This document shows, piece by piece, positions 4,923-64,000 of a stretch of 64,000 nucleotides of DNA. Source of the DNA: an uncultured Candidatus Saccharibacteria bacterium (GTDB lineage Bacteria > Patescibacteriota > Minisyncoccia > Phycocordibacterales > UBA1006). The notes below the pieces were generated by a model. That model ran no database searches. It was given only the letters and a program-made list of their open reading frames with translations, and was not told the DNA's origin. The stretch's first letter is position 1; every line of letters begins with the position of its first letter. The stretch spans positions 248,377 to 312,376 of the forward strand of contig CAYGJA010000001.1 in assembly GCA_964350165.1 (NCBI GenBank), given 5' to 3'. Position numbers and translations under genes: made by a program.

Positions 4923-5030
<108 letters not shown>

Positions 5031-5096
5031 CAGATTACAAAGCTTTTTCGAGCTTGGAATATCAATATATTGTTTATGAGTTTCAAAAAACACCTA

Positions 5097-5111: not shown

Positions 5112-5357
5112 GAAAGAAAATGCTTAATGGTGTATATGATGTCCAGAGTTCCTAACTGGACAATGGGCAATTAGTACTTCTCCGCTCAACACATTACTGT
5201 GCTTACACGTAAAGCCTATCAACCTGATCATCTCTCAGGGCCCTAGGATTACTAATCTTAAAGTTGGCTTCCCTCTTAGATGCCTTCAGAGGTTATCCAT
5301 TCCCGACATAGCTACCCGACGGTGCCGCTGGCGCGACAGCCGGTAGACCAGAGGTCA

Positions 5358-5390
<33 letters not shown>

Positions 5391-5440
5391 CTTTTCAATA
5401 ATCGACGCCTGCAGTAGATAGGAGACCAACCTGTCTTACG

Positions 5441-5756
5441 CATGTGTAGCAATTAGTTGTTTAAAACTAATCACACCGCCATTACTGGCGGGATCGGACT
5501 GTATCTTTATTCGCAAAATGCGAATAGTTAACGTGCAGTCTCTACGGGCTTATATTTCTATAATTCCCTCGGTATTGCCCGCACGAATGCTAGGGTTCTA
5601 CCGATATGAGTTAACTTTTTCTTTCTAGACGAATCTAGAAGACCGCCGTAATTGGTTGGTTCTATCATTTTTCATTTTTGTTAAGACGAAAAGACTATGT
5701 CGTTTTTTTAGGATTCAGATTGGTTCATACTCCAATTCGTAAAAATTAGAATATGA
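5441..5756 (-). other. 316-nt ORF-less insertion in 23S domain V with group-I-intron-like boundaries (U before 5' splice site, terminal G)
   Basis: Flanks GGGTTCAGACCGT | insertion | CGTAAGACAGGTTGG reconstitute the conserved GGGUUUAGAACGU-CGUGAGACAGUU block (E. coli about 2590s). No ORF of 60 aa or more inside. Confidence 0.6.
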
Positions 5757-6418
5757 ACGGTCTGAACCCAGCTCGCGTACCCTTTTAATTGGCGAACAGC
5801 CAAACCCTTGGGACCTTCTCCAGCCCCAGGATAGGATGAGCCGACATCGAGGTGCCGAACATCGCCGTCGCTGTGGACGCTCGGGCGATACTAGCCTGTT
5901 ATCCCCGGGGTAGCTTTTGTCCTATGATCTTCTGCCGCATCTAAAGCGGTCAGTCGGTTCACTATGCTCTGCTTTCGCACCTGTTCGTCATGTCCGACTC
6001 ACAGTCAAGCTGGTTTATGCCATTACACTATCGGCACGGTTTCCATTCGCGCCTAACCAACCTTAGTAGGATCCTCCGTTACTTTTTGGGAGGAGAGCGC
6101 CCCACTCAAACTACCCACCACACACTGTCCCTCCTGGTTTTTGCCCAAGGGGTTAGAACATACATAACATGAGGGTGGTATTTCACTGGCGACTCCAGTG
6201 CAGCCAAAACCGCACCTTCAAAGTCTCCCACCTATGCTGCGCACAGGTCACGTATGCTCAATGTGAAGCTATAGTAAAGCTCCCGGGGTCTTTTCGTCTA
6301 ACTGCAGGTAACCGGCATCTTTACCGGTATTGCATTTTCACCGAGCAGGTCCTCGAGACAGTTCCCCAGTCGTTACGCCATTCGTGCACGTCTGAACTTA
6401 CCAGACAAGGAATTTCGC

Positions 6419-6614
6419 TCATGTATTCCTTTTAAATGCTCGACATGGACTCTATCTTATCCCTCCTTTGCAGGTAGGGCCGTGACGTTGGTCTCTATAT
6501 CATCACGTTTGGACTATGCTTACATTACTGTAAGTAAGGTAACTTGCGTATTCTATTTATCTACTTCTATAACAGTCCCAGTCCTACTGATTTCTAGTTT
6601 GCACTAAAAATCAG
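6419..6614 (-). other. 196-nt ORF-less insertion in 23S domain IV between CCTAAGGT and AGCGAAATTCC (L1917-L1923 intron-site region)
   Basis: Conserved UAAGGUAGCGAAAUUCC block is interrupted. Insertion begins ACTGATTTTTAGTGCAAACTAGAAATCAG (hairpin) and ends ...AATACATG (G terminus). AT-rich, no ORF. Confidence 0.5.
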
Positions 6615-6650
<36 letters not shown>

Positions 6651-7462
6651 CAGGGCTTATACAGATCAGCAAAACAAATAAATTTATTTCACCCTCCAGT
6701 ATTTAACCTTCTGGCATTGGTCAGGCGTCACCCCCTATACATCCTCTTTCGAGTTCGCAGGGAGCTGTGTTTTTGATAAACAGTCGCCAGGGAATCTTTC
6801 GCTGCGGCCCACATTGCTGTGGGCAGGCCTTATCCCGAAGTTACGGCCGCTTTTTTGCCGAGTTCCTTGAGGACCTCTCACTCGTTCGCCTTGGTCTACT
6901 CGACCTGACTACCTGTGTCGGTTTACGGTACAGGTTCCATATGTTTAACCTTAGAAGTTTTTCTCGAAAGGCTCTTCACATACCTCTCCCGGTCCGAAGA
7001 CCGGAATTGCTTGTATCCTCTCTGTTTGCCCGAGGGCCACTACCCGGATTTACCTAAGTAGCACAGATCGAATCCACGACACCAATCCGATAAGATGCGT
7101 ATGCTTATTTCCTTTGTCACTCCATCGAAACATAGGGAAGTTACGGAATATTAACCGTATGTCCATCGCCTGCGGTTCTCACCATCGGCTTAGGCCCTGA
7201 CTAACCCACGGTCGATCAACGTTGCCGTGGAACCCTTAGTCTTTCGGCGGGAGGGGATCTCACCCTCCTTGCGGTTACTTGTGCCAACATTCTTACTTCT
7301 ACACGCTCCACTATGGCTCACGCCTTTAGCTTCATCGCAGAGTAGAATACTCTCCTACCACTCGTATACGAATATACGAATCCTCAACTTCGGTACAATA
7401 CTTAAGCCCCGATTATTTGCGGCGCAGAATCTCTAGACCAGTGAGCTGTTACGCTATCTTTA

Positions 7463-7493
<31 letters not shown>

Positions 7494-8062
7494 TTGTCGG
7501 AGAAATTCTACCTCCTTAAGTGCACTGAGTATTGTTTAGGGACCTTAGTTTGAGATCTGGGCTGTTTCCCTTTTGTCCACGTGACCTTCGCGCCCCGGGA
7601 CTGACTGCCACGCTATTAACCGACTGGTATTCGGAGTTTGGTAAGTTTGGCGAGCCGAAGCCCTACTCAAACTATCCAGTGCTCTACCCCCAGCGGGAAC
7701 ACGTGACGCTATACCTAAATATATTTCGGAGAGAACCAGCTATTACCAAGTTCGATTGGCTTTTCACCCCTTACCACAAGTCATCCCCGCGTTTTGCACG
7801 GCGCGTGGGTTCGGGCCTCCATCTGTGTTTCCACAAACTTCACCCTGCTCATGGCAAGCTCACTTGGTTTCGGGTCGTATGCATGCTACATATTCGCGCT
7901 ATTCACACTCGGTTTCCCTGGGGCTCCGTCCGAAAAGGACTTAGCCAAGCAACATACATACACTCGTTGGCTCATTCTTCAATAGGCACGCCGTAGAGGA
8001 TGCAAGCACCCTCATCGACTCCTTGTAGACACACGGTTTCAGTTCTATTTCACTCCCCTTCC

Positions 8063-8108
<46 letters not shown>

Positions 8109-8863
8109 TGATGAAATATTTAGCCTTACCAGTTAGTACTGGCAGATTCCTCCAAGCTATTCATGTCTCGGAGTACTCAGGAACAGTAGTCAAGAAGGCG
8201 TGAGATTTTCGATTACGGGACTTTCACCCCCTTTGGTTAGGCTTTCCAGCCGTATTCATCTAACCTCACACTTTGTAACTTCTCGGGTAAACCCTACTAC
8301 TGCCCTACAACCCCACATCTCTTTACCGAAGTAAACAGACATGGTTTGGGCTTCTTCCGTTTCGCTCGCCGCTACTCAGGAAATAACATTTGTTTTCTTT
8401 TCCTCTAGGTACTGAGATGTTTCACTTCCCTAGGTAAACTCTTTTGGTCTCTTATGTACCAAAAGTGACTGTGGTTTACACAGCCGGGTTGCCCCATTCG
8501 GAAATTTCCGGATCAAAGCTCGATTATCAGCTCCCCGAAACTTATCGCAGATAGTCCACGTCCTTCATCGCTTTCATCAGCCAAGGCATCCACCGTGCGC
8601 CCTTGGACTCCAATTAGGAGATCCAAACATCAAGTAACACCGCATTTTGTTTTCATTGTGAGAAAACTCGATGTTCTTTGAAAAGACTCACACTTGGCAC
8701 ATACATATATATGTATGTGCCAAATATATTGATATTCAGCTATCAAAGGTCTCGACCTGTTTGCATTAAAAAATCGCCACTTGAGGCGATGCGGAGAACA
8801 ACCAAGGTTGGTCACTGCATCACGTAAGTCTCAAAGTCGAATTGATACGCATAAGGTGGTTGG

Positions 8864-51035: not shown

Positions 51036-52406
51036 CTAGATTGTTAATTTTTCAACAAAATACTCTTCCAGCTCAGACAATTTTACTCGCTCCTGATTCA
51101 TGCTGTCTCGATGACGAACAGTAACGGCTCCATCCTCCAGAGACTCAAAGTCAAATACCACACAAAAAGGCGTACCGATTTCGTCTTGTCTTCGATATCG
51201 TTTCCCTATATTTCCGTTATCATCCCAAAGCACGGCTCCAAAGCGAGCTTTTAGGTTACGGAACACCCCTTCGGCCCCCTCTACCAAATCAGACTTGTTT
51301 TTCAACAGTGGAGAGACGGCAATTTTGTACGGAGCCACATGAGGAGGAAAAGCCAGGTACACCCGCTCTTCGCCTTTTTCGTCTAGCTCGGTTCGATATA
51401 CGCTTTCCAAAATAGCCAAAATCGTACGATCTAGCCCCATAGAAGGCTCGATCACGTGCGGAGTGATTAACTGATTGGTTTCTGGGTCTTCAATCTGAAG
51501 TTTTGTTTTACTTTTTTCGGCGTGCTTGGTCAAATCATAGTTTGTTCGATACGCCAAACCATAGAGTTCTTTTTGGCCAAATGAATAATCAAATTCAAAA
51601 TCTATTGTGCGCTTGGAATAATGAGCTCGGTCTTCCTCGCCAACCTCTACTTCATGAACCTTGTTCATATCAACCCCAATCCACTCGAGCCATTCGAGCA
51701 TTTCGTCTTTCCAATATTGAAAGTATTTTTCCCAATCACGTTCGGCAATAAAATACTCTATTTCCATTTGTTCAAATTCGCGAACCCTAAAAATAAAATC
51801 CCGAGGTGTTATTTCGTTTCGAAAGGCTTTTCCAATTTGAGCAATTCCGAACGGAAGCTTGGGACGAATGGTATCTACTACGTTTTTAAAGTTTACAAAA
51901 ATCCCCTGGGCGGTTTCGGGACGCAAATACGTCGTGTTTGAGGTATCAGCCACTGCGCCAATCTGAGTGGCGAACATCATGTTGAACGTTCTCACCTCTC
52001 CCAGCTTGTTTCCTTCGGGCGACAAAATTCCTTTTTCCTGTATAGCCTGACTCATAGCTACAATATCCATCCCCAGAGGGTCAACACCATTCTCTTCGAG
52101 CAAGTGATCGGCTCGATAACGCTTTTTTGTTTTTAAGTCTTCTACTAAAGGATCAACAAAACCAGCCACGTGACCGCTAGCCTCCCAAACGCTGGGGTTC
52201 ATCAACAAAGCAGCATCTAGTAACTGCATGTCGATTCGAGTATCAACAAATTTTTGCAACCATAAATTTTTAATATTATTTTTCAACCGAGAACCCAAAG
52301 GGCCATAGTCATAGGTTCCCCCCAATCCTCCATAAATATCCGATCCTGCAAAAATAAAACCTCTTCGTTTCGCCAATGAAACAATATTCTGTATCTGTTC
52401 ACTCAT
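51036..52406 (-). CDS. glyS: Glycine--tRNA ligase (class II, alpha2 homodimeric type)
   Basis: N-term QNIVSLAKRRGFIFAGSDIYGGLGGTYDYGPLGSRLKNNIKNLW is characteristic of alpha2 GlyRS. Class II motifs and C-terminal anticodon-binding domain. 456 aa. Confidence 0.9.
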   Translation of the reverse strand: MSEQIQNIVSLAKRRGFIFAGSDIYGGLGGTYDYGPLGSRLKNNIKNLWLQKFVDTRIDMQLLDAALLMNPSVWEASGHVAGFVDPLVEDLKTKKRYRADHLLEENGVDPLGMDIVAMSQAIQEKGILSPEGNKLGEVRTFNMMFATQIGAVADTSNTTYLRPETAQGIFVNFKNVVDTIRPKLPFGIAQIGKAFRNEITPRDFIFRVREFEQMEIEYFIAERDWEKYFQYWKDEMLEWLEWIGVDMNKVHEVEVGEEDRAHYSKRTIDFEFDYSFGQKELYGLAYRTNYDLTKHAEKSKTKLQIEDPETNQLITPHVIEPSMGLDRTILAILESVYRTELDEKGEERVYLAFPPHVAPYKIAVSPLLKNKSDLVEGAEGVFRNLKARFGAVLWDDNGNIGKRYRRQDEIGTPFCVVFDFESLEDGAVTVRHRDSMNQERVKLSELEEYFVEKLTI

Positions 52407-52433: not shown

Positions 52434-54377
52434 CTACTCTACAATACGCCCACCTGACTGACTGGTGTTGGCACCATCATTGAGTAACCTAGTAGTAGCG
52501 GCCCTGGCCTGGGTCGACAATTCGCGCTTGGTATAAGCATCAATACCAGTAGCACTAACACGCGACGTCAAATCTGCGGTTTCTCCAATCTGACTCAATG
52601 ATGGGGTGATGCTTACTTGGAAATAGGCTGTCTTGCCTGCACCACCAAAACCAGCTCCAGGATTAATTGCTCCAACATCCCAAATAACCGTTCTTGAAGT
52701 TGGCTCGTAACGAATATTTTCGCTAGCTGGCGACGTCTGACCTGCCCACTCGACATAAGGTGGCAAGGTGGCTGTAATACGCCCCCTCTCAACTGCATTA
52801 GAAGAATTTGTGACAGTCCATTTGACAGTATAATCTGTGGCTCGACCAACTTGTGGTGGCACGGCGCCAGTATTATCAAAAGGCCCAGTATAGTGCAGTG
52901 ATTCTGCCAAAACGTCCAGCACGGTTCCGATTTGAATTTTTATGGTGTCAGTCTGTTCGGCTGTTCGCAATTGCCCACTAGCATCAACCCCTTTCACACC
53001 AACTCGCAAATTAACCTCAGGACTACCAAAACCAACTCCGCTAAGCAGTCGCGGTGTCAACGTAAACCGCACCGTTCCTGATTCTCCTGGTTCAACCACA
53101 GCCAACGAATCGAGGGTTTCTTTGCTCCAAATAATGCGACTATCAGAAGAACTATAAAAACCAGATTGTGGCTCGACGGCTTCTTTATCAAAAGCTCCTC
53201 CCGACATAAACAGCAAAATCTCCGGGCTCTTGATTGCTTCATCAAGAGTATTCTTCCACTCAATCGTTCCCGAGATTTTCTGCCCGGCAACCACCGACAC
53301 AGTGTCGTCGCTGGAACGATTAACAAAAATATTAGCCTGCAAAAACGGCTGGACAATATCAACAGTCTTGCTCAAAGAATTAAAAACAGTAGCAATAGCG
53401 CCGTTTTGGCTAGAACTGCCAGAACCAACATAAGCCCTAATTGTCTTGGACTGCCCTTCTTGGCCACTCAAAATCCCCGTAATGGTAATTGTTTTTTCTT
53501 CAAGTGGATCAAGTGTTCCAAGCAACCAGGTGTCATTGCCAAACAAAGAAATCGGTGTTGCTTTTGTTACATTAAATCCAGGTGGCAAATCCAGTTGCAA
53601 CACAAGGTTTGGAAGAGGGTCTTCTGATTGAGATATGACAGAAAAAGTATAGGTCTCTTCTTGGCTTCCTATTATTTCATCTCTAGATTCCAAAACAATA
53701 TCAACTGGCGTAGATCGCAAGGTCACCAAAGAGCCTTGTCGTTTTTCAAACGTAGCGTTAGAGCCTTCCACCTGATACTGAAAGATTGTTTCTAAAGGGT
53801 TTTGTGTGCCCTGTTCGCCGTAAAGCACAACGGTAAATTCGGCTGTTTTTGTTTCCCCTGGCCGAAGCGTATCAAGCGGGTAATCCAATCTTCCCACTCC
53901 GTTCTCGTTCAGAGCGGTAACGCTTGGATATTCCAGCACCACGTTGGTAAACACCAAAGGGGCGTTGTTTTTGTTTGTTACATCTATAGATACCTGTAAT
54001 TCCTCTCCGCCATCAACAAAAGCCACATGATCAAATACGACCTCGATATTCTGGCTCGAAACGGTATTTTTGTTCTGATAAAAAGTAACAAAAGCAAAAC
54101 CAGCAGAAAACAAAAATATCAAGAAAGAGAACAAAAATATTTTTTGCCCTAATGAAAATCTTCCTAATGCTGTTTTTTTGCGTTTTTTCATCTCAGTATC
54201 GGCAGTATTCCTGGGTTGTCCCCAACGAGAAGGAACTTCTACCCGCTGAGGCCTTAGATAAGACCTGCCCCTAATTTTTACCCCGGTGGCTCCTGGCTGG
54301 TACAAATCCTGCCGCAGAGACTCAACCGAAGACTCTTCTTCTCTTTCGGGGTTTGGGTTAGCCTTCTTTCCTACCAT
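52434..54377 (-). CDS. Hypothetical type-II membrane protein with large extracytoplasmic beta-rich domain
   Basis: About 85-aa basic cytoplasmic N-terminus, one TM (IFLFSFLIFLFSAGFAFVTF), about 540-aa extracellular region with repeated Ig-like/DUF11-like segments. Confidence 0.45.
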   Translation of the reverse strand: MVGKKANPNPEREEESSVESLRQDLYQPGATGVKIRGRSYLRPQRVEVPSRWGQPRNTADTEMKKRKKTALGRFSLGQKIFLFSFLIFLFSAGFAFVTFYQNKNTVSSQNIEVVFDHVAFVDGGEELQVSIDVTNKNNAPLVFTNVVLEYPSVTALNENGVGRLDYPLDTLRPGETKTAEFTVVLYGEQGTQNPLETIFQYQVEGSNATFEKRQGSLVTLRSTPVDIVLESRDEIIGSQEETYTFSVISQSEDPLPNLVLQLDLPPGFNVTKATPISLFGNDTWLLGTLDPLEEKTITITGILSGQEGQSKTIRAYVGSGSSSQNGAIATVFNSLSKTVDIVQPFLQANIFVNRSSDDTVSVVAGQKISGTIEWKNTLDEAIKSPEILLFMSGGAFDKEAVEPQSGFYSSSDSRIIWSKETLDSLAVVEPGESGTVRFTLTPRLLSGVGFGSPEVNLRVGVKGVDASGQLRTAEQTDTIKIQIGTVLDVLAESLHYTGPFDNTGAVPPQVGRATDYTVKWTVTNSSNAVERGRITATLPPYVEWAGQTSPASENIRYEPTSRTVIWDVGAINPGAGFGGAGKTAYFQVSITPSLSQIGETADLTSRVSATGIDAYTKRELSTQARAATTRLLNDGANTSQSGGRIVE

Positions 54378-54398: not shown

Positions 54399-54947
54399 TT
54401 ATTCATAAGCCGCCTCCAGACTCTGATTAACAACCTGGACAAAATCTCGTGGCGGAACACCAGCCTCGATTGTTTTCTTTACCGACAGCTCCCCGCGCCA
54501 CCAACCGAGTACCTCTAGCATTTCGGCTACGATTCTTGCTTCCACCAAAGAAGCTTCTTTGGTGGAAGCAAGAGAATCGCTATTCTGAAACATTTTTTCT
54601 AACAACTCAAACAAAATCACCTCTGGCTGTTCAATCGGCGTCAAATCACCAATGATTCTAATCACTCTTCCCCACAGAGATTCCCGAACCAGATCTTGTT
54701 TCGTCCACCAGCTTTTTAACTGGGAACTTCCTGTAAGCCTCCACCCATGTCTTCCCCGGACCACGTCAATTTGGACCAAGGACAAGGGTTGTAGGTTTTT
54801 GCGATGCTTGGCAGAAAGCTTGCGAACACTTTTTGCTTGCACGTACACCTTGCCCATTTCCTGGGTATACACCAAAAAACTACTGTCATCTTCGGCCTGA
54901 TGATACTCCCTCAAGACAATGCCTCGAAGCGAAACAACAGAATACAT
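54399..54947 (-). CDS. recO: DNA repair protein RecO-like (short form)
   Basis: N-terminal OB-fold aligns with RecO (GIVLREYHQAEDDSSFLVYTQEMGKVYVQAKSVRKLSAKHRKNLQPLSLVQIDV vs E. coli [52 protein letters not shown]). Lacks C-terminal zinc finger. Confidence 0.55.
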   Translation of the reverse strand: MYSVVSLRGIVLREYHQAEDDSSFLVYTQEMGKVYVQAKSVRKLSAKHRKNLQPLSLVQIDVVRGRHGWRLTGSSQLKSWWTKQDLVRESLWGRVIRIIGDLTPIEQPEVILFELLEKMFQNSDSLASTKEASLVEARIVAEMLEVLGWWRGELSVKKTIEAGVPPRDFVQVVNQSLEAAYE

Positions 54948-54948
54948 G

Positions 54949-57900
54949 CTACTGCAGGGTGACCGCGAACAAAGCTTCGTGAGCCACTACTTCAGCCTCG
55001 GCTTCTTTTGCCAAATCAGCAATTTCTAATCCATTAGCATTAACGGTATTTGTAATGTGCTCTTGGTAATTGGCCAACACTTCTTTTCCGGCATCATTAG
55101 TTGCAATTAGAATATTGACAGCATCGGCAGGTTCTAATCCGGCCGTCTTGCGCAGACCCTGGATATGTCGAATGAGCTCTCGTGCGCCCCCCTCCTGCTT
55201 GAGCTCTTTGGTTAAATTAGTGTCAAACCTACAAGGAGAGCCGTCTTGGTCACCTTGTTCGACAACAATTTCTTTGACGTTCAGCTCGTCTTTTAATAGA
55301 TACTCGCACTCCTGCCAATATTTTGGCACGACAGAAGATTTTATAAAGAATGACTGTAGAGGTTGTCGGACGTTAATTTGTTCTTGTTTGCGGATATTGA
55401 GACCCATCGTCACAAAATTTCGAATCTGGAGCATTGTGCTCAATAATTCAGAGTCTACCGGCTTGTTCGAGTCGGGCCAGGTGCACAGGTGCACGCTTTC
55501 GATATCTTGTTGTTTTCTAAGAGCTTGCCAAATTTCCTCAGCTACAAAAGGCACAAATGGAGCCAATATCTTGGAAGATTCGAGTAATACGTGTCGAAGT
55601 GCTCCTCGAGCCATCGCCGCGTCTTTACTTTCTCCATCTTTAAAACGATCCCGACTACGTCGCACATACCAAGTAGACAAATCGTCCACAAAAGCAAAGA
55701 TAGCGCGCGCGCTCTGATCCAAAGCATAACCATCCAAACTCGCAGTTACTTCATTTGAAAAATCTGCCAAACGAGCGCTCATCCAATGATCCAGAATATC
55801 TTCACTGTTGTTGATGTCGACATGCTCTCCCTGACTATAGAGCTGATAAAAAGAAAGCACGTTGCGCAATCGTCGCATTACTTTGTTTCCAGCGTCCTGT
55901 ACGCCTTTTTCGGTAAAACTACTGCTCTCTCCTCGAACCACGGGCAGGGACACCATAAACAACCGAAAAGCATCAGCGCCATACGCATCAAACACCTCTC
56001 GCGGATCAGGATAATTTTTGAGGCTCTTGGACATCTTTCGTCCGTCTTCGGCCAACACGAGACCGTTCACCACCACTTGCTGGAAAGCAGGCTTGTCAAA
56101 CAATGCGGTAGCCAATACCATCAACACATAAAACCACCCCCTGGTCTGGTCCAACCCTTCGGCAATAAAGCTCGCCGGAAAACGAGATTCTTCAAATAAT
56201 TGTTCGTTTTCGAATGGATAATGCAGTTGTGCATAGGGCATCGAACCAGAATCAAACCAAACATCAAAGACGTCTTCGATGCGCTGATATTCATTCCCTT
56301 CTGCGTCTTTCAGGACAACTTCGTCGATATACGGACGGTGCAAATCCAAATCATAATTATTGTTATGAGGAATGGGAACAAAAGGCAATGGTCTAAGTTC
56401 AGCATTTTTAAACGGAACAAAATCCGCTACAAAAGCCATATCATTGGTGTCTTTTTTGTATTCTTGGTTTTTGGGCAAATGCTCCATCGCCAGGACATTG
56501 AGCAACCAACATACACCACCATGTGTCACAATGACTATTTTTTTATCGGTATGAGTTTTTTCTATTTCATAAAGAAAATCTCCTAGCCTGTTTTTGACGT
56601 CTTGATAGGATTCTCCTCCCGGAACCGGCGTAGCAAACCAATCTTTCTTTGATTGGCTGGCAATATAATCATGATAATCAGACCACGCTCCCCCTTCGAA
56701 TTCTCCGGGCTCTTGCTCACGCAAACGCTCATCCACAATGATGGACTCCTTTGCTAGCCTCAGTTCAGTGGCCAAGACTTCGGCGGTTCCTCGTGTTCGC
56801 AACAATGGAGAAGTAATAATCAAATCAATATCCTGATCCTTGAGGTCATGCGCGGTCACGACTGTCTGTTCCTTGCCCAAATCAGTAATAGGATGAATGG
56901 TGTTGTCATAAGCACTAATCACACCCAAAGCATTTGATTCGGCTTCACCGTGACGCATTACATAGTAGGTATTCTTGGCAGACGGAACGTGTTGTTTTAG
57001 CTCGGCTATCGAACCAATCACGATTTGTTTGCCTGTTTCTTTGTTTTCCCACACCGGCAATGGTGTTCCCCAAAAACGACTACGAGATACTGCCCATTCG
57101 CGAGCACCCTCTAGCCAATTGCCAAATCTCCCGTCTCGCAAATGCTCTGGCACCCAATTTGTTTTGGCATTGTTGGCTAACAAGCGGTCTTTGATAGCGG
57201 GCACATCAACGAACCAAGACTTGGTTGCATAATTAAGGAGCGGTGTGTCACAACGCCAACACAATGGATAGCTGTGTACGTATTTGTATTTTGAAAATAA
57301 TTTTTCGTTATGGGCAAGCCATTTGACGATTTCGATATCGGTCGACATGGTGTCTCCTTTTTTCTTTACCAACAGACCAGCAAAGTCTGTTACTGGTTTC
57401 AAGAATTTTCCACCAATATCTACGTGTTGAATAAAAGGTAGCTGGTATTGCTTGCCAAGCTCCATATCATCGGAACCAAAAGCCGGCGCTATATGCACAA
57501 TACCAGTTCCTTCTTCGGTAGTAACAAAATCAGCAGCGTAGACCTTCCAGCCATTCTCTCGGTTCTCTAGTGTTTCGTCATTGGTGTAATAATCAAAAAC
57601 AGGCACATAAGATTTGCCCACTAATTCCTTGCCAGAAATTTCTGATTCAACCTGGTGTTCTTTGTCTTTGAACACTTCCCCAGCCAAATCCTTGGCGACA
57701 ATATAGCTATGGTCTTCAAATGAAATTTTGACATAGGAAATTTCTTCCCCAACCGCCAGCGCCACGTTTCCTGGCAATGTCCAGGGCGTGGTAGTCCAGG
57801 CGAGCAAATAAGTCCCCGGCTCGTCTACCAGTTCGAATTTTGCAGTGACCGTAATATCGGTAACATCTGCATAGCCCAAATTAACCTCAAAGTTCGCCAG

Positions 57901-58476
57901 TGGCGTCTCGCAACGGGGACAAATATGCATTGGCTTAAAGCCCTGATTTACTAGCCCCTTGTCGTGCAATTGCCGGAACACCCACCAAACCGATTCCATA
58001 TAACTAGCCTGCATGGTCATATACGGATCCTGCATATCTACCCAACGCCCGGTACGCGGGACCAACCCCTCCCAATCGGCCGCATAGCGCAAAACACTGG
58101 CCCGAGCAGCGTCATTAAATTTGTCGATACCGTATGCCTCGATGTCTTTTTTTGATTTCAGATCAAGTTCTTTTTCTATCAAATTCTCGATTGGCAATCC
58201 ATGACAATCCCAACCCCAGCGGCGCGGCACACGATAGCCCTGCATGGTTTTGTAGCGTGGAATAATGTCCTTGATCGTACCAGCCAAAAGGTTACCCAGA
58301 TGAGCAGTACCGGTACCATAAGGAGGGCCATCATAAAACACAAATTCTCCCTGGGGTGCTTCTTTTTCTAGGCTTTTTTCAAAGATTTTTTGTTCTTGCC
58401 AAAAACGTAGGATTTGCTCTTCGCTTTCCGCCACATCGCTTTTTTCTATTTTTTTGGGAGTTTTAGCATCGCTCAT
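54949..58476 (-). CDS. ileS: Isoleucine--tRNA ligase (eukaryote-like type) carrying an in-frame histidine-phosphatase (PGAM-family) domain insertion
   Basis: HIGH-region PPYGTGTAHLGNLLAGTIKDI, CP1 editing domain, KMSKS (DGRKMSKSLKNYPDP), anticodon-binding domain. About 190-aa inserted domain YYVMRHGEAESN...ITSPLLRTRGTAEVL...VIVTHGGV between WGTPLPVW and DLHRPYIDE. ORF track starts at GTG 58494; ATG 58476 (MSDAKTPKK) preferred. Confidence 0.9.
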   Translation of the reverse strand: MSDAKTPKKIEKSDVAESEEQILRFWQEQKIFEKSLEKEAPQGEFVFYDGPPYGTGTAHLGNLLAGTIKDIIPRYKTMQGYRVPRRWGWDCHGLPIENLIEKELDLKSKKDIEAYGIDKFNDAARASVLRYAADWEGLVPRTGRWVDMQDPYMTMQASYMESVWWVFRQLHDKGLVNQGFKPMHICPRCETPLANFEVNLGYADVTDITVTAKFELVDEPGTYLLAWTTTPWTLPGNVALAVGEEISYVKISFEDHSYIVAKDLAGEVFKDKEHQVESEISGKELVGKSYVPVFDYYTNDETLENRENGWKVYAADFVTTEEGTGIVHIAPAFGSDDMELGKQYQLPFIQHVDIGGKFLKPVTDFAGLLVKKKGDTMSTDIEIVKWLAHNEKLFSKYKYVHSYPLCWRCDTPLLNYATKSWFVDVPAIKDRLLANNAKTNWVPEHLRDGRFGNWLEGAREWAVSRSRFWGTPLPVWENKETGKQIVIGSIAELKQHVPSAKNTYYVMRHGEAESNALGVISAYDNTIHPITDLGKEQTVVTAHDLKDQDIDLIITSPLLRTRGTAEVLATELRLAKESIIVDERLREQEPGEFEGGAWSDYHDYIASQSKKDWFATPVPGGESYQDVKNRLGDFLYEIEKTHTDKKIVIVTHGGVCWLLNVLAMEHLPKNQEYKKDTNDMAFVADFVPFKNAELRPLPFVPIPHNNNYDLDLHRPYIDEVVLKDAEGNEYQRIEDVFDVWFDSGSMPYAQLHYPFENEQLFEESRFPASFIAEGLDQTRGWFYVLMVLATALFDKPAFQQVVVNGLVLAEDGRKMSKSLKNYPDPREVFDAYGADAFRLFMVSLPVVRGESSSFTEKGVQDAGNKVMRRLRNVLSFYQLYSQGEHVDINNSEDILDHWMSARLADFSNEVTASLDGYALDQSARAIFAFVDDLSTWYVRRSRDRFKDGESKDAAMARGALRHVLLESSKILAPFVPFVAEEIWQALRKQQDIESVHLCTWPDSNKPVDSELLSTMLQIRNFVTMGLNIRKQEQINVRQPLQSFFIKSSVVPKYWQECEYLLKDELNVKEIVVEQGDQDGSPCRFDTNLTKELKQEGGARELIRHIQGLRKTAGLEPADAVNILIATNDAGKEVLANYQEHITNTVNANGLEIADLAKEAEAEVVAHEALFAVTLQ
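56395..56970 (-). other. Histidine phosphatase (phosphoglycerate-mutase-like, branch 1) domain embedded in IleRS (about aa 509-700)
   Basis: RHG motif (VMRHGEAESN), conserved Arg (LLRTRGTAE), glutamate (EQEPGEFEGG), distal His (VIVTHGGV). Flanked both sides by conserved IleRS catalytic-core sequence. Confidence 0.75.
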
Positions 58477-58484
58477 ATTGCCCC

Positions 58485-58495
58485 ATATTAGCACA
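58485..58495 (-). promoter_or_regulatory. Extended -10 promoter element (TGTGCTAATAT) 8 nt upstream of ileS ATG; near-leaderless transcript predicted
   Basis: Minus strand TGTGCTAATAT-ggggcaat-ATG. TGnTAATAT fits extended -10. No SD sequence. No T-box leader. Confidence 0.35.
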
Positions 58496-58552: not shown

Positions 58553-58933
58553 TTAGTCTAGAATTTTTTTATTTTTTAACGTTTTTTGCCACCAGGCTGT
58601 TTCTTTTGTGCCTTTAATATGGTTTTTGTGATAGACCAATAACACTTCGGCACTCTGCCGATTATCGTCAAGCCGAGCAATAAAACGATGACCAGACTTT
58701 AGGGCTGAGGTTTTTTCACCAAAAATCTTAAAATAACCTTTCACTATACGAGTATTTCCCTCGTGAATAATGGTCTCCAAAATACTTGTTTCTTGAATGG
58801 TTTTATCGGGCAACTGCAAAAGCCGTATTATTGCCTCTCTAGTCAGTGGCCATCTCTTTTTATGTTTTTTTGCCAAATCCTTGCAATAGTGTTTTTCCGC
58901 AAAGGTATGAATAACAACACGATACGTCGACAT
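58553..58933 (-). CDS. RelE/ParE-superfamily-like toxin (putative)
   Basis: 126 aa. YRVVIHTFAEKHYCKDLAKKHKKRWPLTREAIIRLLQLP ... GHRFIARLDDNRQSAEVLLVYHKNHIKG follows the RelE/ParE pattern. Starts 6 nt after the upstream antitoxin-like gene. Confidence 0.45.
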   Translation of the reverse strand: MSTYRVVIHTFAEKHYCKDLAKKHKKRWPLTREAIIRLLQLPDKTIQETSILETIIHEGNTRIVKGYFKIFGEKTSALKSGHRFIARLDDNRQSAEVLLVYHKNHIKGTKETAWWQKTLKNKKILD

Positions 58934-58938
58934 AACCC

Positions 58939-59637
58939 CTAGAACACATTGTCATGGTCTTCTTGACCAATCAAAGCATAGCTGATGAGCTCACCGTCTC
59001 CGGCCAGCTTGTAGGGCAGCTGTCCGTGTGTAAAAGCCACGATTTCATTAGTGCTGACATCGTGCCACTTCTTCTCGATATCATTCATCAATGTAATTTG
59101 TTCACTCGACAAATGGGCAGACTGATACAGATTTCCAGGACGCGTCGCACGGAGTAGATATACCGGCCCCTTGTCGGTGGTCTTGTGCTCGACCTCAATC
59201 AGGCCTTTTTCTTCCAACTCGTCTATCATCCGAAAATACGTGTCCGGTACGGGGCCAAATTGGATTTTGCGGTAGCCAAGCCCACTCATGCTGTCCATAT
59301 GTTCATAAAACCAAGCAAAATCAGCCAAATATAAAAGTTTGGCCAACTTTGTTTTTGGCACCTTGCCGTCGCCCGCTCCGCGGGCGACGGCCTGCAACAT
59401 TGCAATAATCATATCGCGGTAGACGTCTAATCGCGGCGCAATTCCCGCCACCAATTCTTCGACGGTTACGCCCAATACTCGCGCCAGCCGTTCGGCCTCC
59501 TGAATCGAAACATCGCGCGCGCCTTTTTCGATCGCAATATACGACGGACGCGAAAGTCCGACCGCCTCCGCCATCGAGACCTGTGTCAGCTTTTTTTCTT
59601 TTCGCAGCGTCAACACTGCATCACCTAATGTAGCCAT
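58939..59637 (-). CDS. HTH-XRE + Panacea (DUF4065/SocA-like) domain protein, putative antitoxin
   Basis: N-term LRKEKKLTQVSMAEAVGLSRPSYIAIEKGARDVSIQEAERLARVLGVTVEEL (Cro/C1 HTH). C-term KLAKLLYLADFAWFYEHMDSMSGLGYRKIQFGPVPDTYFRMIDELEEKGLIE matches the Panacea core. Confidence 0.6.
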   Translation of the reverse strand: MATLGDAVLTLRKEKKLTQVSMAEAVGLSRPSYIAIEKGARDVSIQEAERLARVLGVTVEELVAGIAPRLDVYRDMIIAMLQAVARGAGDGKVPKTKLAKLLYLADFAWFYEHMDSMSGLGYRKIQFGPVPDTYFRMIDELEEKGLIEVEHKTTDKGPVYLLRATRPGNLYQSAHLSSEQITLMNDIEKKWHDVSTNEIVAFTHGQLPYKLAGDGELISYALIGQEDHDNVF

Positions 59638-63214: not shown

Positions 63215-64000
63215 CTACATTTCAGAAGGTGTGTCTATAGCGAGCAATGCGAGCCCATTGTGCAGTACCTGGCCCACCGCGGCCACAATTGCCAAGGAAT
63301 GGCTGGCCTGTTCGCTGTCCAAGATGCGCTCACGCCCATACCAAGAATTAAATTCCCGAGCCAATTCGAGCAAATACCCCACCACGTGATGCGGTGCATA
63401 CGCCTGCTGGGACTTGGCCACAATCTCTGCATAGTGCAGGAGTTTTCGTTCTACCAGCCCAACCTCTCCCGCAGTCATATCTAGGATTGGCCCAATCCCC
63501 TGTTCTTTGCCTTTTCGCAATAGGCTCTGTGTACGTGCATAAGTGTACTGCAGGTACGGACCCGAATCCCCCTCGAAGGACAGCGACGTATCAGGATCAA
63601 AGTTAATATTCTTTCCAGCCTCGCTTTTGAGGATGGCGAATTTGAGTGCGGCAATGGCCACCTGGTCCAGAGTAGATTCTGGCAGATTGCGGTCTGCGGC
63701 TCGCTCGACGACTTCTTCGTGCACCACCGCCAGAATGTCCTCGGCCAGAGGGACGCCGCCCAACCGAGAAGACATTTTTTTACCCTTGAACTGCATGCGA
63801 CCATGCGGAACATGAACAAAATTCTGCTCCCAAACCGGATTTATTTTTCCCGCTGCTTTGGCTACTACTTTGAAATAAGCCGCTTGTTCATGATCGGTAA
63901 CCGTAATCGAAATATCCGGCTGATAGCGCTCATTCTTGATGCTCATCAGGCCAATATCCTTGGCTTCGTAGGTTGGGTTGCCTTCGGAGTTAATAAATAC
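63215..64000 (-). CDS. argS: Arginine--tRNA ligase, C-terminal two-thirds (gene continues beyond right edge)
   Basis: KMSKS-type motif (FKGKKMSSRLGGV) and DALR anticodon-binding domain (…YAPHHVVGYLLELAREFNSWYGRERIL…). Frame stays open from 63946 to 64000 (…NPTYEAKDIGLMSIKNE…). Confidence 0.85.
   Translation of the reverse strand, partial: VFINSEGNPTYEAKDIGLMSIKNERYQPDISITVTDHEQAAYFKVVAKAAGKINPVWEQNFVHVPHGRMQFKGKKMSSRLGGVPLAEDILAVVHEEVVERAADRNLPESTLDQVAIAALKFAILKSEAGKNINFDPDTSLSFEGDSGPYLQYTYARTQSLLRKGKEQGIGPILDMTAGEVGLVERKLLHYAEIVAKSQQAYAPHHVVGYLLELAREFNSWYGRERILDSEQASHSLAIVAAVGQVLHNGLALLAIDTPSEM

Follow-up and report, generated by a model that had tools for sequence, protein, structure and literature searches.

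A branch-1 histidine phosphatase domain nested in a type-2 isoleucyl-tRNA synthetase of Patescibacteria

The ileS gene and its product

The DNA analysed here (the window) is a stretch of 64,000 nt from an uncultured Candidatus Saccharibacteria bacterium (assembly GCA_964350165.1, contig CAYGJA010000001.1, positions 248,377-312,376 of the forward strand). Its ileS gene encodes an isoleucyl-tRNA synthetase (IleRS) with a histidine phosphatase domain nested in its catalytic domain (Table 1). The identical database protein (P0001) has 1175 residues and Met7 is invariant across the family alignment, so that the true start is probably the ATG at residue 7 (nt 58476), not the GTG of the maximal open reading frame (ORF), giving a product of 1175 residues.

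The host enzyme is of type 2 (IleRS2), as an earlier note, made from the sequence alone, had proposed in calling it eukaryote-like. Its best sequence matches in the PDB are IleRS2, the yeast and human cytoplasmic enzymes and T. thermophilus IleRS (E ≤ 1e-203; E = 3.6e-225 for PDB entry 8c8u, IleRS2 from Priestia megaterium), compared with 3e-93 for the type 1 enzyme in PDB entry 1ffy. The NCBIfam ileS model TIGR00392 scores 880.6 bits on the whole protein against a cut-off of 621.4. Pfam tRNA-synt_1 matches in two stretches (E = 1.4e-131), the better of which covers residues 27-503 and stops at the insert; Anticodon_1 and DUF5915 are also matched. AlphaFold gives a confident model of the full-length protein (pLDDT 91.9, pTM 0.86), the body of which can be superposed on structures of type-2 IleRS with TM scores of 0.80-0.89. 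The editing motif WTTTPWT together with His334 and Asp343 is invariant in a 116-sequence alignment, from which the conservation of the start was also read (the catalytic-residue counts below are from 121 sequences), and the CP1-hinge cysteines 192, 195, 412 and 415 are invariant in the family. By these motifs the synthetic, editing and anticodon-binding parts appear intact.

Of the two class I motifs, KMSKS is intact and the first reads HLGN, its fourth residue being Asn in place of His. The earlier note had listed HLGN as part of the type-2 character, and this part of its description does not hold for the family: 117 of the 121 homologues have H-[YF]-G-H, and Asn is found at the fourth position only in the window protein and three close relatives. 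The Asn thus looks, in the alignment, like a local peculiarity that is not tied to the insert. The non-canonical signature variants described for IleRS2 are G/AxHH, linked to mupirocin hyper-resistance (PMC10485003); the window enzyme has HLGN instead, and it scores below the cut-offs of the MupA and MupB resistance models (688/1900 and 736/1900).

In an alignment with 8c8u, the window protein pairs over residues 21-503 with chain positions 10-478 and over residues 714-1083 with 484-854. The gap in this alignment places an insertion of ∼210 residues (504-713) where 8c8u has a loop of about five residues (479-483). The in-frame insertion had been put at residues ∼509-700 (∼190 residues) from the sequence, which is close. 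In comparison with 8c8u/8c8v and 1ile, the Rossmann fold, the CP1 editing domain, KMSKS, the anticodon-binding domain and the DUF5915 C-terminal domain are common to all (fold TM scores of 0.81-0.89); the differences are the replacement of the short loop by the phosphatase and the loss of the flanking zinc-knuckle cysteines in the window protein.

The phosphatase domain, its site and its distribution

A profile search with His_Phos_1 (PF00300), as the earlier note had suggested, gives 109.5 bits for the insert (gathering score 21.7). The four hallmarks of branch-1 enzymes that had been recognized by eye, the RHG motif, the second Arg, the acidic Glu and the distal His, are all present, at coordinates confirmed by translating the DNA. 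Arg514, His515, Arg566 and Glu593 occur in 121 of 121 sequences and Asn521 and His658 in 120, in what is otherwise the least conserved region of the protein (mean identity to the window protein of 41%, compared with 60-70% for the catalytic core). Two further features are specific to and conserved in the inserts of the family: N-x-Y, which precedes strand 1, and F-x-P-x-P-H-N in the linker by which the chain re-enters IleRS.

Modelled on its own with AlphaFold, the insert gives a pLDDT of 90.4 and a pTM of 0.89. In this model the domain is seen to fold autonomously, and its N- and C-termini meet, so that it would fit in a loop. Foldseek with the insert returns PspA, the riboflavin-pathway HFP, PhoE, CobC, GpgP, TIGAR and Shb17 (E ∼ 1e-13, probability 1.00, 20-28% identity), and true mutases match it less well in fold than phosphatases do. 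In sequence, the models of cofactor-dependent phosphoglycerate mutase (dPGM) stay under their cut-offs (dPGM_arch 73.8/225, GpmB 49.2/261, PRK01295 33.2/316), as do CobC (TIGR03162, 90.6/162.9) and PspA (NF045917, 60.2/350). Since every NCBIfam equivalog cut-off is missed, the insert lies outside all characterized subfamilies. The catalytic residues, the fold and the sub-cut-off scores taken together lead us to treat it as an active phosphohydrolase: the insert is apparently a complete and active branch-1 histidine phosphatase, which by sequence and model most resembles the small-molecule phosphatases (PhoE, PspA, CobC) and not the mutases. PhoE/YhfR, PspA (4ij5), CobC, GpgP (Rv2419c) and HFP (9mmh) share with it the fold, the RHG...R...E...H constellation and a length of ∼190-200 residues; unlike this group, the domain of the window family is nested inside, or encoded beside, an aminoacyl-tRNA synthetase (aaRS).

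The insertion point (site A) is the loop of a small hairpin at the surface of the catalytic domain, between WGxPxPxW and (E)LDLHRPYID...DVWFDSG, and it is identical across all of the site-A lineages examined. At this hairpin a CxxC...CxC pattern is found in insert-less IleRS2 and in about a third of the insert-bearing homologues; its counterparts are presumably the second zinc site in the T. thermophilus enzyme and, in LeuRS, the 'ZN-2' module. The hairpin is ancestrally zinc-binding. In the window protein its cysteines are lost, the positions being Asn484, Thr487, Asp730 and Glu732. The spacing from WGxPxPxW to DVWFDSG is 50-72 residues in insert-less IleRS2 of many phyla (the earlier estimate of 60-90 for the flanking blocks was about right), 243-266 with the insert and 430-439 with tandem domains.

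We searched a collection of 5.8 billion proteins for homologues and examined the best 120 matches. All 120 combine IleRS domains with PF00300, at identities from 100% down to ∼50%; they come from NCBI, JGI, ENA and Logan assemblies, on contigs of up to 611 kb, and nearly all of those that are named are Patescibacteria, Pacebacteria or Nomurabacteria. The insertion is thus widespread in the group in which the earlier note had advised looking for it. A second scan, seeded with the full-length alignment, covered one genome per GTDB species, and the site was measured in the best 80 loci. The phosphatase is present at 18 of these, 17 of which have a measurable site gap. Insert-bearing loci with informative titles belong to Paceibacteria/Minisyncoccia, Saccharibacteria, Peregrinibacteria/Peribacteria, Spechtbacterales and Yanofskybacteria. 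Among the same 80 loci, the IleRS2 from outside Patescibacteria with a measurable site all have the normal gap of 50-72 residues, which is also found in Falkow- and Uhrbacteria and in some Sacchari- and Peribacteria; the loci of Moranii-, Magasanik- and Gottesmanbacteria gave no phosphatase match. One contig labelled as an uncultured gammaproteobacterium (CAYOXM010000018.1, L013) carries a Patescibacteria-type insert-bearing IleRS and is probably mis-binned.

This distribution bears on whether the architecture is real. A mis-assembly, a chimeric contig or a frameshifted gene pair read as a single ORF would produce such a gene, and the chance of this is now negligible. Independent NCBI, JGI, ENA and Logan assemblies contribute at least 120 protein clusters with this in-frame arrangement, and it recurs in the GTDB species genomes; base composition is continuous and unremarkable across the insert junctions, and the junction residues are conserved in the family. 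An artefact is effectively refuted, and the view that the domain is nested rather than the product of a fusion, a frameshift or a chimera is borne out by the best 120 homologues and the 18 species-representative genomes.

Full-text literature searches gave no description of an aaRS with a phosphatase of the PGAM family, in keeping with what had been suspected; a phosphatase-bearing aaRS of any kind was likewise not found in the searchable full-text literature, and two papers on IleRS evolution (PMC10485003; bioRxiv 10.64898/2026.02.03.703510) do not mention a phosphatase-bearing IleRS. The database names of these proteins are generic ('class I tRNA ligase family protein', 'hypothetical protein'). 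The nearest conceptual precedent is NF040702 (ileS_w_GNAT), in which a foreign catalytic domain is also nested in IleRS. It differs in domain family, chemistry and site, with GNAT in CP1 and the phosphatase in the hairpin loop; the window protein scores 319 with this model (cut-off 1999) and has no GNAT domain according to Pfam. The editing domains, YbaK and AlaX, as accessory catalytic domains of aaRS, are a general precedent. A branch-1 domain is also joined to a nucleic-acid or nucleotide enzyme in the Rv2228c-type RNase H/acid phosphatase (NF005567) and in mycobacterial MutT1 (Nudix and RHG domains), but these are terminal fusions, whereas the window domain is nested; NF005567 matches the insert with E = 2e-20 and 73.4 bits (cut-off 326). 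Multidomain aaRS with an accessory catalytic module are already known, and it is the phosphatase module, widespread in Patescibacteria, that is apparently undescribed.

Other sites, separate genes and the neighbourhood

An exhaustive HMMER search with the insert against 1.84 billion cluster representatives gave 1,373 matches with E ≤ 1e-10, and when selected long ones were aligned directly to the window protein, two further sites came to light. Site B lies past the helix that follows KMSKS, ahead of the anticodon-binding domain; it is the sole site in P0378 and holds second copies in P0342, P0294, P0296 and P0344. Site C lies directly after DVWFDSGSMPYA, ahead of DQTRGWF (P0342 and P0294), and proteins of the P0342 type are found on contigs of up to 1.06 Mb. 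The form with site B only comprises nine clusters from Candidatus Abawacabacteria/Gracilibacteria, and its nearest relatives, at 62-63% identity, are without the phosphatase. These insert-less relatives suggest that site B was gained separately, in another IleRS2 lineage. A core neighbour-joining (NJ) tree and the neighbours had hinted that the forms with sites B and C lie outside Patescibacteria; for site B, the names of the relatives led us to drop the idea.

Copy number also varies. Two loci from Peribacteria/Peregrinibacteria (L012 and L015) have a tandem pair at site A in IleRS ORFs of 1472 and 1487 residues, with both domains catalytically intact. The first and the second copies each pair across the two genomes, which dates the duplication before their split. 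Neither locus retains the original distal hairpin half (DLHRPYID...CxC), which is missing or replaced, and the second phosphatase leads almost directly to ...KRIPDVLDCWFESG. The IleRS P0288 has three phosphatase copies. Foreign domains of other kinds were also observed: P0093 has a GNAT acetyltransferase in CP1 (residues 285-415) in addition to the phosphatase, and P0074 has a 182-residue CP1 insert at query position ∼261 that contains 'VHSLGAS' and gives sub-threshold alpha/beta-hydrolase matches (E ∼ 0.02).

In Candidatus Staskawiczbacteria the two parts are separate. The IleRS is insert-less with an intact zinc knuckle, and a phosphatase of ∼190 residues, with boundaries exactly those of the inserted domain, is encoded upstream, 4 nt from ileS in three contigs (L020, L083 and L084). 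The boundaries of the window insert are those of the free-standing homologue in L020. The order of the split locus is argS-phosphatase-ileS-x-recO, and the window shares its argS...ileS-recO backbone. In one Staskawiczbacteria genome (L081/L082, 5678-7686) an RHH/YafQ-like toxin-antitoxin pair and two uncharacterized genes lie between the phosphatase and ileS. Phosphatases of this ∼190-residue type form at least 120 clusters, and the catalytic residues are intact in the standalone forms; free-standing proteins with two phosphatase domains also occur, and in at least one case (P0312) a gene with a single phosphatase domain lies away from ileS.

All 100 NJ bootstrap replicates recover the standalone phosphatases as a monophyletic clade, and none of the 100 recovers the inserts as monophyletic without it. 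As the standalone clade is nested among the inserts, the split phosphatase most likely derives, as far as such trees can tell, from an inserted domain. Monophyly of the insert-bearing IleRS cores was not recovered in the NJ trees, which are crude, and the history of site A may be one ancient insertion with many losses or several gains. By these comparisons, the association of the phosphatase with IleRS is both ancient and plastic, and the linkage, whether physical or genetic, is one that has been kept, re-invented and remodelled.

In the window itself, argS and ileS are separated by an accessory island of ∼4.7 kb that is not present at related loci. Its two genes next to ileS (58553-59637, minus strand) may be a toxin-antitoxin pair. 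We had considered the HTH-Panacea gene as a clue to function (toxSAS and tRNA pyrophosphorylation) and set it aside as coincidental, the island being absent from related loci. Downstream of recO lie a gene for a 647-residue DUF11-repeat protein, probably at the cell surface (52434-54377, minus), and one for a class II aaRS with an HGTP anticodon-binding domain (51036-52406, minus). With argS, ileS and this gene in the same region, several translation genes are clustered in the window. The 23S rRNA gene (5151-8616, minus) exceeds the bacterial model by ∼540 nt and contains a group-I-intron-like element at 5475-5726 (minus; Rfam RF00028, E = 2e-8, 41.5 bits, under the gathering score of 50); the 5S rRNA is at 4927-5034, and the 64-kb window yielded no tRNA gene.

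Table 1. Coordinates of ileS, of the parts and motifs of its product and of neighbouring genes in the window
Feature	Position (nt)	Strand	Remarks
ileS, type-2 IleRS with nested phosphatase	54949-58494	minus	Uninterrupted maximal ORF, 1181 aa from GTG
IleRS N-terminal part, aa 1-503	56986-58494	minus	First half of Rossmann fold, CP1 editing domain, proximal hairpin half (WGTPLPVW...GSIAELKQHV)
Class I signature motif HLGN, aa 65-68	58291-58302	minus	H-x-G-H expected; coordinates verified by translation
Inserted segment, aa 504-713	56356-56985	minus	Histidine phosphatase with N- and C-terminal linkers; ends F-x-P-x-P-H-N
Pfam His_Phos_1 match, aa 511-670	56485-56964	minus	E = 2.2e-31
RHG motif (Arg514, nucleophile His515)	56947-56955	minus	Arg514 and His515 121/121, Gly516 119/121
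Arg566, second phosphate-binding Arg	56797-56799	minus	121/121
Glu593, predicted general acid	56716-56718	minus	121/121
His658, distal catalytic His	56521-56523	minus	120/121
IleRS C-terminal part, aa 714-1181	54952-56355	minus	Distal hairpin half (YDLDLHRPYID...DVWFDSG), second half of Rossmann fold, KMSKS, anticodon-binding domain, DUF5915 C-terminal domain
KMSKS motif, aa 820-824	56023-56037	minus	Lys820 and Lys823 121/121
recO-like gene directly downstream of ileS	54399-54947	minus	RecO_N; synteny with L083 and L084
126-aa ORF	58553-58933	minus	No Pfam match; between ileS and antitoxin-like gene
HTH_3 and SocA/Panacea antitoxin-like gene	58939-59637	minus	In island upstream of ileS
argS C-terminal part (DALR_1)	63215-63946	minus	Upstream of ileS; ORF runs towards window end

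Other hosts, possible roles and their meaning

The phosphatase is not confined to IleRS. P0242 (1161 residues, truncated, on a 3.9-kb contig) has the N-terminal part of a valyl-tRNA synthetase (ValRS) followed by four tandem His_Phos_1 domains that begin ∼10 residues past the post-CP1 'QWFI' strand. Two TsaC/YrdC proteins (threonylcarbamoyl-AMP synthases) carry a C-terminal phosphatase: P0358 (L087, 977-2140), with 146.8 bits for TIGR00057 (cut-off 123.2), and P0381, with 110.4 bits, below that cut-off, and E = 1.9e-36 for PF01300. Their phosphatases nest within the main insert/standalone family with a pair support of 83% (NJ). In P0382 (L088, 3361-5100) a C-terminal phosphatase follows a QueC-like PP-loop protein, the QueC assignment being weak; this gene has ThiF-like, GNAT and glycosyltransferase genes in its vicinity. 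The fusion hosts seen in the best 150 representatives (IleRS, ValRS, TsaC and QueC-like) are all enzymes that convert ATP to an adenylate and pyrophosphate (PPi). What is directly common to all of the hosts found is the reaction ATP + substrate to adenylate + PPi, with AMP as the final product; the description 'tRNA-related' fits them more loosely. As adenylating enzymes make up ∼5% of a small proteome (a rough estimate), three independent host families of this kind would be unlikely by chance. The host data favour a link to adenylate/PPi chemistry without settling it.

As an explanation of the whole we prefer, with some but not strong confidence, a complete type-2 IleRS with an autonomous nested phosphatase that is linked to adenylate chemistry. 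The domain would act as a phosphohydrolase through a phospho-His515 intermediate, with Glu593 as the acid. Its function would be independent of the exact attachment geometry: three loops are tolerated, as are arrangements in cis or in trans, so that the domain probably need not take up a fixed position with respect to the synthetic site. The selected trait would then be co-localization or co-expression with enzymes that turn ATP into an (amino)acyl-adenylate and PPi, and the domain would clear a phosphorylated compound that such reactions have in common as a product or by-product. We put this forward tentatively for the class of substrates as a whole. Within the class we find PPi the most appealing, since activation could no longer be reversed once PPi is hydrolysed, and even so we consider it unlikely to be the actual substrate; a nucleotide monoester (AMP, for instance, or a 2'/3'-phosphonucleotide) seems improbable. 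A phosphorylated nucleotide had been among the possibilities named in the earlier note.

Several points weigh against the adenylate link and against PPi in particular. Branch-1 histidine phosphatases are classically phosphomonoesterases, and we found no documented branch-1 pyrophosphatase. Peribacteria, some of which have tandem inserts, are reported to encode an inorganic pyrophosphatase (PMC4736985), so the argument that Patescibacteria lack this enzyme is not supported. Nor does mycobacterial MutT1 serve as a precedent for phosphoanhydride cleavage by such a domain: its C-terminal RHG domain is described as being 'of unknown activity' and the Nudix domain performs the chemistry (PMC11784022). 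The free-standing P0312 and the many insert-less IleRS of Patescibacteria indicate that the coupling is not obligatory. The pattern of adenylate-forming hosts was spotted post hoc, in a match list biased towards IleRS-like inserts. Finally, the trees are NJ trees on short alignments with unresolved deep nodes.

Some of the same observations would suit a domain that merely hitch-hikes, that is a general small-molecule phosphatase with no mechanistic tie to aminoacylation, for which the permissive loops of essential, constitutively expressed genes secure expression in streamlined genomes. Its nearest solved relatives are broad or metabolic phosphatases, there are free-standing members away from ileS, and the use of three sites shows that the attachment geometry is evidently unimportant. 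The IleRS of these lineages tolerates other inserts (the GNAT domain and the 182-residue CP1 insert), and the tandem copies are mutually divergent, as diversified specificities would predict. We nevertheless regard hitch-hiking as rather unlikely: the hosts found are all adenylate-forming and translation-related, which would not be expected of random carriers given the estimated share of such enzymes; once separated, the phosphatase gene and ileS remain 4 nt apart in three contigs from a single lineage; and different sites in different IleRS2 lineages suggest separate gains.

A role at the tRNA itself, which the earlier note had suggested, would preserve the link with translation. The domain might strip a 2'-, 3'- or 2',3'-cyclic-derived phosphate, or a phosphate or pyrophosphate added by a toxin, from the 3' end of tRNA(Ile) before charging. 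IleRS and ValRS do bind tRNA 3' ends, and the free-standing phosphatases are basic (+6 to +17 charges per 100 residues), like IF3 and SmpB of the same contigs, unlike the inserted domains, which carry the mildly acidic charge of their host. The basic charge comes largely from the AT-rich, Lys-rich proteome of that lineage, a UMP-kinase-like protein and other neighbours also being basic; with this control, the inference from a very basic standalone phosphatase to RNA binding was given up, and we take the charge as no more than suggestive. Neither TsaC nor QueC acts on the 3' end of tRNA (established biochemistry), a repair function would not be expected to need two to four domains in a row, and the confinement to the Ile and Val enzymes would be left unexplained. 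To our knowledge, there is no RNA-end phosphatase in the PGAM family. Repair of tRNA ends is in our view a doubtful explanation.

We give still less credence to a regulatory role, also raised in the earlier note, in which the domain would dephosphorylate IleRS or a partner (reversing a Hip-like kinase by which an aaRS is inactivated, or acting on phosphohistidine like SixA) or would sense a metabolite and tune IleRS allosterically. The PGAM superfamily does include protein phosphatases; SixA and the mycobacterial MutT1 system are discussed in the literature as phosphohistidine phosphatases; and the NCBIfam sixA model gives weak matches of a sub-threshold type to related domains. No kinase partner was found in the gene neighbourhood, and a comparison of insert-bearing and insert-less IleRS gave no core positions that are differentially fixed at an 80% threshold. 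The broad, ancient and housekeeping-like conservation is atypical of toxin immunity, and the strict conservation of the catalytic residues speaks against a purely sensing or structural role.

The aminoacyl-tRNA synthetases belong to the most thoroughly studied enzymes, and the accessory domains known from them serve to edit mischarged tRNA, to bind RNA or to make contact with proteins. This picture does not provide for a conserved phosphatase, with its catalytic residues intact, inside the catalytic core of an aaRS; here it occurs in an ultra-small Patescibacteria bacterium, in an enzyme that protein synthesis cannot do without. It is possible, although we hold this view with some reserve, that the phosphatase is a dedicated and previously unrecognized accessory activity of the adenylate-forming translation enzymes of Patescibacteria, for example a built-in pyrophosphatase or a means of clearing tRNA ends, and that its repeated capture reflects selection for the coupling. 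If so, it would be a new functional class of aaRS accessory module beyond those for editing and tRNA binding; if it serves activation, it would show how organisms with minimal genomes and an unusual energy metabolism handle the thermodynamics or the by-products of adenylate formation. If the domain is a mere passenger, it would be a striking natural case of tolerance to domain insertion, and the three permissive IleRS loops that are now mapped would be useful for engineering. The generic names of these proteins in the databases could be improved immediately. For working out the function, the natural variants in site, copy number, splitting and host are unusually informative, and the split lineage in particular is a natural experiment in which the same phosphatase can be compared in cis and in trans.

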